A stretch of DNA of 64,000 nucleotides from an uncultured virus (IMG/VR IMGVR_UViG_3300028835_001893) (IMGVR_UViG_3300028835_001893); one strand, 5' to 3'; counted from the first letter of the stretch, positions 1 through 4,359 are shown. Notes: generated from the letters alone by a model not told the origin. Translations and numbers: made by a program.

Positions 1-358
1 GTCCGTGTCCTACCAATACGTTACAAGTATATATGAACGTTTTCTCCTTGAAGTTATCGAACTTAATTGGCTGTTCATTTTCATCAAGGAATGGAATAAA
101 ACAGTCCTCGATTTTCACAAAGGACTGACAGACACGATAATAGTCTGCCCAGTTCTTTCCTTCAAATACTCGAACACACCCACCATTCCTCTGGCTAGTT
201 AGGAAAGCACGTATATTCATACTAGGAAATGAAATAATACCATCGTTGATGTACATTTTTGCTTCGGGTGGTCTTTTCGTTTTACTTTGATCGTAAAAAC
301 GATCAAACATAATATCAGTCAGACCCTTAACTTTTATGTCTATTTGCCATTCTTTCAT
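1..358 (-). CDS. RAMP/Cas7-like phage protein (candidate Vipr-type), 3' end runs off the window
   Basis: Not in the ORF track. ATG at 358 with AAGGAG RBS; open to position 1. Translates as MKEWQIDIKVKGLTDIMFDRFYDQSKTKRPPEAKMYINDGIISFPSMNIRAFLTSQRNGGCVRVFEGKNWADYYRVCQSFVKIEDCFIPF... The N-terminal beta strand and 'IISFPSMNIRAFL' resemble the RAMP 'hhP.SSh+G.h' motif. The fold call is by eye. Confidence 0.6.
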   Translation of the reverse strand, partial: MKEWQIDIKVKGLTDIMFDRFYDQSKTKRPPEAKMYINDGIISFPSMNIRAFLTSQRNGGCVRVFEGKNWADYYRVCQSFVKIEDCFIPFLDENEQPIKFDNFKEKTFIYTCNVLVGHG

Positions 359-384
359 AACTATTTCTCCTTCTCGTTAAGTTA

Positions 385-437
385 ACTATGTTTCGCTAGG
401 TTGCGCTCGGCTGTGTTTGGCTTTGCTATACTCCGCT
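385..437 (-). repeat. 11-unit pentamer array (ARY-NN)n, candidate guide-type ncRNA
   Basis: Minus strand reads AGC gg AGT at AGC aa AGC ca AAC ac AGC cg AGC gc AAC ct AGC ga AAC at AGT. Exact 5-nt period, fixed triplet with variable dinucleotide, intergenic. Confidence 0.85.
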
Positions 438-450
438 CTCCTTAAGTATG

Positions 451-651
451 TTAATATTCTACAAGATTATCAACCCAAAGGGACGCTCGATTTCCGATCT
501 TATTTTCCCTGACTTCTGCAATCCGAGTCGGGTCTGAGCCGATCCGGTCTCTTTCCTGCTTTAACCAATTAATATAGTCCATTGTACCTTTTATAGTTTG
601 AACTTTTCCTGTTTTGAAACCTTGTTTGTATAATTCTATCATTTCTCCCAT
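451..651 (-). CDS. Small phage protein, paralog of 701-913
   Basis: Start moved to the RBS-supported ATG at 651. Shares MIELY.Q..KT.K..T.KGT.DY..WL.QERDRI.SDPTR..EVRE with the neighbouring gene. Confidence 0.75.
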   Translation of the reverse strand: MGEMIELYKQGFKTGKVQTIKGTMDYINWLKQERDRIGSDPTRIAEVRENKIGNRASLWVDNLVEY

Positions 652-700
652 AAGTAACTCCTTCCGTTTAAAATTAATTACTTTGCTGCATTCCGCTGGG

Positions 701-913
701 CTATACTCTGATACGTTTACGTTTCGTAACATCAACCCAGAGAGATACTTGATCACCACTCTTACTTTCCCTGACTTCTACAGTCCGAGTCGGGTCTGAA
801 CTAATCCGGTCCCTTTCTTGTTCTAACCAATCAGAGTAGTCCACTGTGCCTTTTGCGGTTTTAATTTTCTCCGTTTTAGGACTCTGTATATATAGTTCTA
901 TCATTTTTGTCAC
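701..913 (-). CDS. Small phage protein, paralog of 451-651
   Basis: GTG start with AAGGAG RBS; clear similarity to the adjacent gene. Confidence 0.75.
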   Translation of the reverse strand: MTKMIELYIQSPKTEKIKTAKGTVDYSDWLEQERDRISSDPTRTVEVRESKSGDQVSLWVDVTKRKRIRV

Positions 914-947
914 AAGTTATACTCCTTTCTTGATTCCGATATTCTCT

Positions 948-1229
948 TTAATCATCAAACCAGGGGTGTTTACCCCATAAAAGTCTTACTTCATCTGGAT
1001 GCATAAAGCCAAGATATATAGCTCTGTGTTTCATAGCTTTATAATTTCTTATCATTGGACGTACAGTAATCAAGTTAAGTAGGGTTTTCCACCAAGGTCG
1101 ATACCCAAAAAGTGATTCACGATACTGAAACCACCAGTCATTATTCACCCCGAATCTATTGGTATGCAGGACGAGATGAATTCCTAGTTTCCAATGATCT
1201 AAAAGATATTCTATTTTTTTCTTATTCAT
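948..1229 (-). CDS. Hypothetical protein
   Basis: ORF with AAGGAG RBS in a tightly packed minus-strand run. Confidence 0.65.
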   Translation of the reverse strand: MNKKKIEYLLDHWKLGIHLVLHTNRFGVNNDWWFQYRESLFGYRPWWKTLLNLITVRPMIRNYKAMKHRAIYLGFMHPDEVRLLWGKHPWFDD

Positions 1230-1240
1230 GCTCCTTCCTT

Positions 1241-1465
1241 TTATCTTACTTTTTCAAAACCAAAAAACGCAAGTTTGTCACAATGAGGACACTGTGGTAT
1301 TTTTTGGTTTTGGTCCAGACCTGCAATTTGAAAATTATCTGGAAGACCATCTTGAAATTTCATTTCTTTTCCAGGAAATTCTTTATTACAGTTGGAGCAT
1401 TTATATATTGACTTTTCGTCCTCAATTTGCTCATTAAGAACTTCTGGTTTTGGAAAGATTGACAT
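1241..1465 (-). CDS. Zinc-ribbon protein
   Basis: CSNC...CPHC motifs; RBS present. Confidence 0.7.
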   Translation of the reverse strand: MSIFPKPEVLNEQIEDEKSIYKCSNCNKEFPGKEMKFQDGLPDNFQIAGLDQNQKIPQCPHCDKLAFFGFEKVR

Positions 1466-1480
1466 GTTATCTCCTTTCTT

Positions 1481-1768
1481 CTAATTATGACATTGAAGAT
1501 CGTTTAACAGATCCTGAACCTCTCCTTTACGTTGACAAGCGGGACATTTACAGTTAGGACCACCAGCTTCTGGATTCTCTCTTTTAAACCGCTCCAAACA
1601 TTCTTCTTCTGTTTCATTTTCCCTAATTATTGGTACATGGTGTTCCGTTTCTATATGTTGAAAAAGTTCCTCATTGGTTTTAGGAAGTTTATCGATATCA
1701 CTTCCCTTTAGTCCCTTAGTAGCGATACAATATTTACAGGCTATCGGCATCTGCTTCTCCTTTGGCAT
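1481..1768 (-). CDS. Cys/His-rich hypothetical protein
   Basis: CKYC, HIETEH and CKCPAC motifs. Confidence 0.65.
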   Translation of the reverse strand: MPKEKQMPIACKYCIATKGLKGSDIDKLPKTNEELFQHIETEHHVPIIRENETEEECLERFKRENPEAGGPNCKCPACQRKGEVQDLLNDLQCHN

Positions 1769-2013
1769 CAGTATTTAATTCTTTTTTTTCGAGCCTTTCA
1801 ATCCAATAATTTAGGATCTTATTGATATTTGAGAAAGAGCTCATTATCCTTTCTACTTCGTACCTTATTTTCTTGAGATCTTCAATATCTTCTTTTTCCA
1901 TCTGGTTTCTCCTTCTTATGAATAATGGAAGGTGATGACTGGCTGAAACATGCTTTCCGCGCCATTTTTGGTGGGTATGGTGGGAAAATCATCACCTTCC
2001 AAACTTTAGTTTC

Positions 2014-2391
2014 TTAACTAAATCTTTCTCTTAGACTAGATCCATGGTCCAATGTAATTTTCAGATCTTTTCTATGTTCTTTTTTGTAAGGACACCATGG
2101 TGGGGGGTCTTCTTCTGTTAAATGTACTTGAGAATCAAAGATTCCGAACTGACTTTCAATGAGACCAAGTTCCCATTTTTCGAACAATCCAGATTTTCTT
2201 ATCTTTTCTAATGCCCTCTCTCTCCATCTCTCAAGTATGGGGTAGGGACAATGTACATGACCTGGACGGATTACTGTCCCACCCACTTTGTATATGTATG
2301 GATCGAACCACGATTCTGTGAACTCGTTCCATCCTTTACTACTATTGAATTCCTTTATACGACATCTCTTACATATTTTTTTTTCTAACAT
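2014..2391 (-). CDS. Hypothetical protein
   Basis: ORF with RBS; CKRC and CPY motifs. Confidence 0.65.
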   Translation of the reverse strand: MLEKKICKRCRIKEFNSSKGWNEFTESWFDPYIYKVGGTVIRPGHVHCPYPILERWRERALEKIRKSGLFEKWELGLIESQFGIFDSQVHLTEEDPPPWCPYKKEHRKDLKITLDHGSSLRERFS

Positions 2392-2555
2392 AATTCCTTC
2401 CTTAACCTTTCAAAGTTTCTTTTCTAAGGATCCATTCTTCAATTATGTCTTGTATGAACTCGTCTATTTCATCTAAATCAGTTTTTTTGTCGCAGCTCTC
2501 TTTTGCGATGTCTTTAACTTTGTTGATTACATGTTCATCAATCTCAATTAACATT

Positions 2556-2900
2556 TTATCTCCTTGGTATTGGTATTGGATAGTGTTGGTGAGGATATAC
2601 TTGTTGTGTTTCTTGCCACATTTCGACATGTATGACACGGAAAGATATTTTAGTATATTTTGCATTGAGAAGTTTGAGAAGTCTGATAGCAACCTTCTTG
2701 TTATAACATCCTCGTTCTCCGATTGTTTGCCAACATTTCCCACTTAATGTAAAACTTCTATAGGGTTCTTCAAGCGGGTTGTAAGCATCTTTTTGACTTA
2801 CACCAATAAAGTTCTCAAGCTTGAGTTCTGTCCACTGGTTAGATACTGTGGAAAGATACTGAACTGTATAGAACTTAACTCTTCCATCTTTACGTAACAC
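2556..2900 (-). CDS. Hypothetical protein
   Basis: GTG start with AAGGAGG RBS. Confidence 0.6.
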   Translation of the reverse strand: MLRKDGRVKFYTVQYLSTVSNQWTELKLENFIGVSQKDAYNPLEEPYRSFTLSGKCWQTIGERGCYNKKVAIRLLKLLNAKYTKISFRVIHVEMWQETQQVYPHQHYPIPIPRR

Positions 2901-2917
2901 TGTAAGCCTCCTTTCTA

Positions 2918-3196
2918 TTAACTTAGTTTTATTATGAGGTTAGCTATACGTTTTACGTACCTATATTCATAGTGGCCACAAGGACAATTACTTATTGTTC
3001 TTTCTGGTTTTTCTTTACCCTTGATTCCTGGAAATATTTTCTCACAATAATAACATCGACGTTTAGATTTAAAACCAAATAATCTGAAGCTAGGTAATTG
3101 ATAAATGAATGGACAATAATTCCATTTACTACCTTTGACCCACTTTTTTATTCGACGTATTATTCGTCTATTTAAAAAACTTAAATCTCGTTTCAT
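2918..3196 (-). CDS. Cys-rich small protein, tandem paralog of 3210-3491
   Basis: Identical MKRDLSFLN start; shared YCEKIFPGIKG and NCPCGHYE.RYVKRIANLIIK. Confidence 0.8.
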   Translation of the reverse strand: MKRDLSFLNRRIIRRIKKWVKGSKWNYCPFIYQLPSFRLFGFKSKRRCYYCEKIFPGIKGKEKPERTISNCPCGHYEYRYVKRIANLIIKLS

Positions 3197-3209
3197 CGTA
3201 GTTGCCTCT

Positions 3210-3491
3210 TTATTTAGGTATTTCTTTGATTATGAGATTGGCTATACGTTTTACATATCTGAACTCGTAGTGGCCACAAGGACAATTTCTTATTGTTGTC
3301 TTTGGGTTTTGTCTCCCCTTGATTCCTGGAAATATTTTCTCACAATAATTACAGTGGTGTGTAAGTCCAGATTGAGGATCCATGTATATAACATTATAAA
3401 GGAATGGACAATTCCATTTATTACTTTCGATAATCCACTTTTTTATTCGATTTGTTATTTCTTTATTTAAGAAACTTAAATCTCGTTTCAT
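3210..3491 (-). CDS. Cys-rich small protein, tandem paralog of 2918-3196
   Basis: As above; the upstream AGAGGCAACTACGATG is identical in both copies. Confidence 0.8.
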   Translation of the reverse strand: MKRDLSFLNKEITNRIKKWIIESNKWNCPFLYNVIYMDPQSGLTHHCNYCEKIFPGIKGRQNPKTTIRNCPCGHYEFRYVKRIANLIIKEIPK

Positions 3492-3984: not shown

Positions 3985-4006
3985 TAGTTTCTCCAGTAAC
4001 CTTGGA

Positions 4007-4359
4007 TGGAGGTGTCGGGAATCGAACCCGAGTCCGAAAACTTTCAACACATGCTTCTACGTATATATTCTGGATTATAAATGTCATCTTCTTACTCGTA
4101 TCCAGACAACTTGTATGAAGATTAAGTCCACAGTGTCTCGCCTGATTTTTGTGGACAGAAAATCAAGCTATCTCCGTTAAAGTCGACGCTCTTTTCGAGT
4201 CCACGGAGAGGGACGGGAAAAGAACGGAGTTACGCAGCTAAGCGCATCTCTTGGTAATAGTCATCTGCGACTATGTTTAATTTGACTGGTTTTAACACGG
4301 TCAGCCGCCCGCGATACGCAACATATATTTCATTGTCCCCGTCGAAGCCATTCACCCCC
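4007..4359 (-). ncRNA. ssrA: tmRNA
   Basis: 5' GGGGGTGAATGGCTTCGACGGGG; 3' GGACTCGGGTTCGATTCCCGACACCTCCA. Acceptor stem GGGGGTG/CACCTCC with the G3.U alanine identity pair, T-arm TTCGATT, 353 nt. Tag frame 4268-4230 encodes ADDYYQEMRLAA*. Confidence 0.96.

Follow-up and report, generated by a model that had tools for sequence, protein, structure and literature searches.

The start of the window (the whole stretch of 64,000 nt that was analysed, from the uncultured virus IMGVR_UViG_3300028835_001893) is the 5' edge of what is very probably a genuine VIPR (Viral Interference Programmable Repeat) locus, carried by an uncultured phage that is T4-like. The locus is an A-R-Y scaffold variant of the known VIPR kind and not a new kind of system. 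Four lines of evidence support this assignment: the repeat tracts, the homology and fold of the adjacent protein, the architecture of the locus and the covariation of the scaffold with a loop of the protein.

As far as the available text of the preprints goes, Vipr is a minimal RAMP whose vrRNAs consist of 9-16 YNNGG repeats and a 3' tail; in phage SUSP1 a single vrRNA precedes the gene, an array follows it and a 1-nt skip rule applies, and seven VIPR types are described, with NNNGG, YNNNG and NNNNG given as alternative repeats in the methods (10.64898/2026.04.26.720920). The type II exemplars are Escherichia phage SUSP1 and a Pseudomonas fulva prophage (10.64898/2026.04.26.720920, 10.64898/2026.04.26.720927). 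The initial annotation of this DNA had invoked viral VIPR systems that pair a RAMP-like protein with GGY-NN repeat RNAs specifying a gapped target, and this was accurate in that VIPR, GGY/NN and the 1-nt skip can all be found in the bioRxiv text (10.64898/2026.04.26.720920).

Leader tract upstream of vipr

The leader tract, U0, lies within the 92 nt (359-450) that separate two minus-strand ORFs and are bordered by the stop codon of the upstream ORF (451-453) and the ATG of vipr (358). The features at this edge of the locus are listed below; L002 coordinates refer to the locus including the part beyond window position 1, which was taken from a second virus record, G001.

2..358, minus strand: 5' 119 codons of vipr (full gene 190 aa, L002 343-915)
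359..384, minus strand: leader 3' stretch TAACTTAACGAGAAGGAGAAATAGTT, 26 nt, the interval from U0 to the ATG
385..437, minus strand: U0, a vrRNA1-like tract, NN = GG AT AA CA AC CG GC CT GA AT (TA)
445..473, minus strand: sigma-70-like promoter match, TTGATA-17-CATACT, 9/12 (L002 228-256)
451..651, minus strand: 66-aa ORF directly upstream of vipr
680..707, minus strand: short ARY-NN tract of six units, AGTAT AGCCC AGCGG AATGC AGCAA AGT
L002 881-910: second promoter match, ending 3 nt ahead of U1, the first downstream unit

Positions 385-437 read, on the minus strand, AGCGG AGTAT AGCAA AGCCA AACAC AGCCG AGCGC AACCT AGCGA AACAT AGT, which are 11 in-phase A-R-Y triplets ending 27 nt before the vipr ATG. 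The 11 units and ten dinucleotides listed in the initial annotation, its 92-nt gap and its distance from array to ATG were thus all reproduced. At a chance of about 0.08 for each A-R-Y+NN unit, runs of 11 units are expected about 5e-8 times per 64 kb, and when the window was shuffled 200 times by mononucleotide, the longest exact A-R-Y run, with both strands counted, reached 6 at most (mean 4.4). Tandem Repeats Finder reported no period-5 arrays at the tracts, as is to be expected where just three of the five letters are fixed; this indicates that the tracts are not slippage-type DNA, in agreement with the earlier argument that slippage does not produce a fixed triplet with a free dinucleotide.

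The 26 nt between U0 and the ATG contain AAGGAG, the ribosome-binding site of vipr, and an element, 'AACGAGAA', similar to the motif seen in the tails further downstream; no stable fold was predicted for this stretch (-1.7 kcal/mol, z -0.09). Since the ribosome-binding site lies inside the tail of the leader tract, it is conceivable from this arrangement that loading of the guide is coupled to translation of vipr. The shorter tract at 680..707 adjoins the ribosome-binding site of the 66-aa ORF on its upstream side and is possibly a remnant or a short guide, although its six units carry little weight alone because they equal the shuffle maximum.

Guide array downstream of vipr

The remainder of the locus was recovered from G001 (70,235 bp, linear, CheckV 22%), which is 100% identical to window positions 1-1500; the identical locus also occurs in a 124-kb record, and a search of the 'phages' collection with window 1-3000 gave zero matches. 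About 14 more ARY-NN tracts begin right past the vipr stop (L002 914-2263) on the strand of the gene, so that the search for further (RRY-NN)n arrays proposed in the initial annotation found many of them directly 3' of vipr. The feature as originally delimited holds U0 and the start of vipr, as claimed, and its bulk lies beyond the window edge. All 15 tracts (L002 264-2263) are on the vipr strand; within 20 kb, no ARY-NN tract was found on the opposite strand and just two runs of 5-6 units elsewhere. Fourteen of the 15 tracts hold 10-14 pentamers and one holds 6, with a spacing of 86-136 nt between the downstream guides. The array is closed by a terminal hairpin and T-run, an intrinsic terminator (-25 kcal/mol, z -6.3), and ORF maps show vipr as the sole gene from the leader tract to this terminator. 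This is the layout of a minimal viral VIPR locus, namely vipr with flanking non-coding guide regions.

In a set of 179 units parsed by hand, A makes up 98% of position 1 (0.14 bits of entropy), position 2 is G in 72% or A in 27% (0.94 bits) and position 3 is C in 80% or T in 16% (0.84 bits), while the two NN positions are variable (1.86 and 1.91 bits). None of these 179 units is GGY, and a wider count by a run-finder (190 units) gave AG 127, AA 54, GA 2 and GG 1, the last being GGC. The tracts therefore show the run length of 9-16 pentamers and the conserved triplet with hypervariable NN by which VIPR guides are recognized, with A-R-Y in place of the canonical triplet GGY (YNNGG). The missing GGY does not exclude membership of VIPR, because the publications admit 'a related consensus' (YNNNG and others).

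A further hairpin (L002 964-1050; 19 bp, -23.2 kcal/mol, z -5.0, without a T-run) follows U1, between the first and second downstream units, and may have a role in processing or attenuation; in related strains it differs by several substitutions and indels, at places 988-1022.

TRAP binds 11 (G/U)AG triplets, one every 5 nt. The position of U0, with its eleven period-5 units immediately ahead of a ribosome-binding site and with 6/11 triplets reading GAG or TAG when the frame is shifted one base earlier, would therefore also fit a leader-RNA site for another oligomeric, TRAP-like RNA-binding regulator and not a guide. We find this hardly credible, as the base preceding the A belongs to a high-entropy column (1.91 bits), about 14 equivalent tracts lie 3' of the gene and outside leaders, the neighbouring protein is a Vipr homolog, and the pairing of gene and tract recurs in relatives with GGC scaffolds. 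The tracts are thus best read as VIPR guides.

The Vipr protein

The ORF that runs off the window (2..358) translates as quoted in the initial annotation and proved to be a gene of 190 aa with the C-terminus ...GGKLIGFGNGRPQVGQFEIIKWDVRELQS. A phmmer search of PDB sequences gave one meaningful match, 36pp (36pp_D, 'SUSP1 Vipr protein'; E 5.8e-6, residues 75-180), and a 17-sequence profile matched 36pp with E 6.8e-8. No Pfam family was detected in the protein, and PHROGs returned an unknown-function family only. An AF2 model from the 17-sequence alignment had pLDDT 88.6 and pTM 0.85 (a single-sequence model reached just pLDDT 39.6), and its best PDB matches by Foldseek, in a library extending to April 2026 and without 36pp, were Cas7 proteins of the Csm3/Cmr4 type (E ~5e-6, probability 1.00, TM 0.55-0.61). 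The earlier suggestion of a RAMP/Cas7-like gene is therefore borne out by the sequence match to 36pp and by the Cas7/Csm3-like predicted fold. The family comprises 1137 representatives (50% identity) at E<=1e-3 and 264 at E<=1e-10.

The C-terminal Gly-rich loop, which had been proposed as a check on this identity, is present (GGKLIGFGNGRPQVGQF); in the G-loop itself, GFGNGRPQVGQF, the RPxxGxF core is conserved, and the thumb arginine is kept, with R129 here aligned to SUSP1 R138. The protein is thus a minimal RAMP, with RRM core, thumb and Gly-rich loop, that is homologous to Vipr. In the SUSP1 structures, according to the available text, G1 is read by H17 and D177, of which D177 hydrogen-bonds the base; G2 is held by R138 and W178, with W178 stacking on it; and the pocket for Y3 includes R179 and C173 (10.64898/2026.04.26.720927). 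The dipeptide at this site is N170-G171 here and D177-W178 in SUSP1.

In its general organization the locus resembles the SUSP1 and P. fulva systems, being phage-borne and encoding a single-RRM RAMP with thumb and G-loop. It shares with SUSP1 the arrangement of one tract 5' of vipr and an array 3' of it, as well as direct sequence similarity of Vipr, and with type II VIPR in general the tracts of 10-14 pentamers with a fixed triplet and variable NN, in units about 100 nt apart. It differs from SUSP1 in having the triplet A-R-Y and not GGY, in the N-G of the G-loop, and in an A-rich tail that is predicted to be unstructured, in contrast to the pseudoknot tail of SUSP1.

Altered pentamers are themselves known: the accessible text of 10.64898/2026.10.21.760802 gives 21 clusters and non-canonical pentamers that include GAC/NN, CAC/NN, WGT/NN and TGH/NN. 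Like the non-canonical repeats described there and in 10.64898/2026.04.26.720920, those found here keep the pentamer period and alter the fixed letters, beside a Vipr-like fold. The AGY units fall in the YNNNG class of 10.64898/2026.04.26.720920 as its available text defines it; unlike that class, 27% of the units here are AAY and keep neither G of GGY. An A-R-Y (YNNAR) scaffold is not named in the accessible text of the VIPR preprints, whose logo figures (fig. S17, fig. S10) may show one.

A type III CRISPR-Cas system was the other family to be considered. The modelled protein shares an RRM core, a thumb hairpin and a Gly-rich loop with Csm3/Cmr4 of the Cas7 family (TM 0.55-0.61), but sequence identity to these proteins is 8-16%, and the guide period is 5 nt here as against 6 nt. 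A search of L002 1-2600 for a repeat-spacer array was negative, and no CRISPR repeat family was detected in the whole window at Rfam gathering scores. With no such array and with vipr as the sole gene, the interval from leader tract to terminator does not have the make-up of type III CRISPR-Cas. Rfam families were likewise lacking in the locus, which indicates that it is not a hammerhead-interspersed array.

Relatives of the locus and covariation of scaffold and G-loop

Pentamer (period-5) tracts lie beside the gene in all 16 viral-contig loci (two of which are the present phage and two of which share one contig), and pentamer runs occur in all 12 metagenome loci examined, these being 12 of 16, the remaining four of which duplicate viral records. 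The NN positions vary within and between loci. Homologs thus have adjacent arrays with variable NN in 16/16 viral-contig and 12/12 metagenome loci, as the VIPR reading in the initial annotation predicts. Genome contigs yielded a single relative, in a Spirochaetes MAG (contig of 1967 nt), which is too little to point to a host.

In most relatives the scaffold is GGC; AGC is found in L008/L024, L015, L022 and two partial loci, L032 and L034. To relate the scaffold to the protein, we compared 19 full-length proteins at the residue aligned to SUSP1 D177. All 14 loci with Thr at this position are GG-dominant, and all five with Asn or Ala (the present locus, L022, L008, L024 and L015) are AG-dominant. 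Three later Thr/Ser loci were also GG-dominant, although one of the three was mixed (15 GG : 8 AG). A prospective search for further Asn-type loci produced new loci that were all of the Thr/Ser type. In a maximum-likelihood phylogeny, 3 changes of the A-first label are required, of which well-supported branches force at least 2; the independent evidence for covariation thus amounts to two or three switches, because some rows are near-duplicates.

The reading of the array as a variant ARY scaffold, made originally from the leader tract, proved right. The share of AAY is highest in the present locus (54/190 units, as against 3/38 in L022, 11/90 in L008 and 10/67 in L024). In the 127 family representatives whose G-loop could be recognised, the D177-equivalent residues are 74 T, 21 N, 17 A and 12 S, and if the residue rule is true A-first scaffolds would be common in the family.

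Perturbation of GGY abolished silencing in SUSP1, and the legend of fig. S12B lists GGY>AGY, >GAY, >GGA and >AAY (10.64898/2026.04.26.720920, available text). Because GGY>AGY and GGY>AAY are among these changes, activity of the ARY guides would hinge on a putative compensating change in the protein.

Tails, possible promoters and expression

A recognisable A-rich tail, ...AGCATAGYAAAGAACGAAAAATACTAAAAYATTTT, is common to about half of the units, in the context ...AGCAT AGYAA AGAACGAAAAATACTAAAAYATTTT. An anchor with an ACGA core occurs in 9/15 units, and the tail is fullest after U7, U9-U11 and U13. The final two or three pentamers (AGCAA AGCAT AGYAA) are conserved along with the tail. Tails mostly fold no better than shuffles, the exceptions being U7 (z -3.1) and the U1 hairpin (z -5.0). 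A scan for the tail motif returned 22 loci, two of them the present phage, and no ARY tracts were found at the other 20.

The -10 element of the promoter match at 445..473 ends 7 nt ahead of the first U0 pentamer; both promoter matches were scored against the sigma-70 consensus only, which may not be the promoter type of the host. The A-rich stretches could accordingly belong to the next unit, as its promoter or leader, and not be 3' handles, with guides starting at CAT|AGC. The tails hold TAAAAT followed by CAT-AGC 7 nt on, promoter-like hexamers end 7 nt ahead of U0 and 3 nt ahead of U1, and the tails have no stable fold, all of which would suit such a role. We nevertheless judge it rather unlikely, since conservation of the tail extends into the last pentamers (AGCAA AGCAT AGYAA) and the conserved part of SUSP1 vrRNAs is, in the available text, a 3' tail (10.64898/2026.04.26.720920). 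The choice between promoters and the 3' tails that we favour touches the processing model alone and leaves the identity of the system unaffected.

In one metatranscriptome, assembled contigs cover vipr codons (L002 348-698) and the capsid gene, and not the tracts; DNA carry-over is possible in these RNA-library contigs. Contigs from three other runs, roughly 95-99% alike, span vipr and its flanks. Strain contigs bridge or swap guide units at 1080>1141 (228 other letters) and 1213>2166 (183 other letters), with a further joint at 1596 or 1621>2252, and one unmatched contig end consists of ARY-NN units followed by an AACGAAA tail. These joints were placed at 85% likeness in repeat-rich DNA, some with short sides, and therefore give a mere hint that guide cassettes may turn over between strains.

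Targets and proposed mechanism

By analogy with the SUSP1 structures, a single Vipr protomer would bind each pentamer, sequestering the constant A-R-Y triplet and leaving NN exposed. The exposed dinucleotides would then pair with double-stranded DNA reading NNxNNx..., with one base skipped, and this pairing would lead to silencing of a competing mobile element.

The gapped-target search proposed in the initial annotation gave no convincing match, either in 222 kb of related sequence or in viral contigs. In the 222 kb (window, G001 pieces and relatives' loci), the best self-targets by 1-nt skip were at the level of the skip-0 and skip-2 controls, and the only perfect matches were the tracts themselves, at skip 3; the missing self-target is consistent with the published absence of self-targeting. 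Exact 9-unit patterns of U0, U7 and U2 with a 1-nt skip gave 0 matches in viral contigs. An 8-unit core of U0 gave 8 matches, the best of which, L043 in G002, agrees at 21/22 bases. All eight are within ORFs, in a phase that puts the skipped base at wobble, and encode [IM][NK][HQ]TRAL[DE] in unrelated proteins, a phase to which codon bias could contribute.

Two candidate targets were rejected. The match at L043 extends by three extra units at 5/6 bases (binomial estimate p ~0.005 per match, ~0.04 over the 8), but the other 14 guides do not rise above control level on the same contig, and the match is probably due to chance because it is unsupported by any other guide. A 9-unit match of U14, to one distinct sequence, extends to just 19/24.

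The composition of the NN dinucleotides fits codon positions 1-2 (sense) of the phage's long ORFs, at +22.9 bits over background, as against -18 to -47 bits in the other five frames, and 10/15 guides individually prefer this frame. Such a fit is predicted by a 1-nt skip at the wobble base. It offers compositional support, not proof, for guides that would be aimed at coding sequence with the wobble base skipped. The 'codon-like' reading of NN in the initial annotation therefore stands as regards composition and finds no support beyond it.

The empty target search bears on a further alternative, in which the locus belongs to the VIPR family and obeys a rule unlike that of SUSP1, such as another skip length, an RNA target, or guides that serve as decoys or competitors. 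SUSP1 Vipr is able to make guide-RNA duplexes in vitro, according to the available text of 10.64898/2026.04.26.720927. Such a rule would account for the zero targets obtained with the 1-nt skip, and it would sit well with the difference from SUSP1 in the G-loop residues by which G1 and G2 are held there and with tails that have no predicted structure. It is nonetheless improbable in our view: codon positions 1-2 are the only frame that suits the NN composition, both the thumb Arg and the RPxxGxF loop have been retained, and 8/8 U0-core matches place the skipped base at wobble, allowing again for codon bias. We therefore prefer a VIPR locus that would follow the SUSP1 rule.

Genomic neighbourhood

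After the array, on the opposite strand, lie genes for a Gp23 capsid protein, an S77 prohead protease and a T4-type portal, which identify the genome as that of a T4-like phage. In relatives, the terminase large subunit and portal lie near vipr in L006 and a portal in L008 (Pfam), and a partial ORF of L024 was grouped with the L006 terminase by blastp; these neighbours resemble the capsid/protease/portal setting here.

No neighbour gene is common to all relatives, in a clustering that was polluted by spurious ORFs reading through the tracts. At the present locus, no neighbour has a domain recognisable as that of a vap gene in Pfam, PHROG or Atlas. The 66-aa ORF (451-651) and a 70-aa ORF (701-913), both on the minus strand, are paralogous, with the common core ...MIELY...KG T.DY..WL.QERDRI.SDPTR..EVRE.K..., and neither received a Pfam, PHROG or Atlas assignment. 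The 66-aa ORF would be the sole candidate for an accessory (vap) gene at this locus and is, as such, unsupported. In two near-identical loci of the GGC type, L012 (877-2748) and L026 (1571-3442), a conserved gene follows vipr and the guide tract; that of L012 has UvrD/REP helicase domains (Pfam) and its L026 counterpart was grouped with it by blastp only. As helicases are mentioned in connection with some VIPR types, this UvrD-like gene is a candidate for an accessory gene of that sort.

Elsewhere in the window, a tmRNA at 4004-4359 on the minus strand matches Rfam RF00023 over its full length (172 bits), with the tag peptide ADDYYQEMRLAA by ARAGORN. The minus strand of 1241-3491 encodes small Cys-rich ORFs with CxxC pairs (74, 95, 125, 92 and 93 aa), of which those at 2918-3196 and 3210-3491 are paralogous (...YCEKIFPGIKG...NCPCGHYE.RYVKRIANLIIK).

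Implications

The covariation allows a broader proposal, which we advance tentatively and with some doubt. One G-loop residue may set the scaffold that is accepted, with D, T or S specifying G and N or A specifying A at triplet position 1, so that VIPR would divide into mutually orthogonal classes. Switches from GGY to ARY would then be arms-race events that make a phage deaf to the GGY decoy or solo vrRNAs of its rivals; decoy vrRNAs have been reported for satellites of SUSP1 (10.64898/2026.10.15.759431). The present locus, with position 2 loosened to R as well, would hold the most diverged scaffold of its clade and supply an orthogonal tool pair.

VIPR was discovered only months ago, and its published rules derive from two GGY-based systems of type II. 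The present locus is a natural system of about 15 guides whose scaffold, when SUSP1 is mutated to carry it, abolishes activity. As this scaffold is paired with a matching protein change at the residue responsible for reading the first G, it points to a concrete, testable determinant of specificity, and the ARY pair may give orthogonal Vipr/vrRNA pairs for multiplexed programmable repression.
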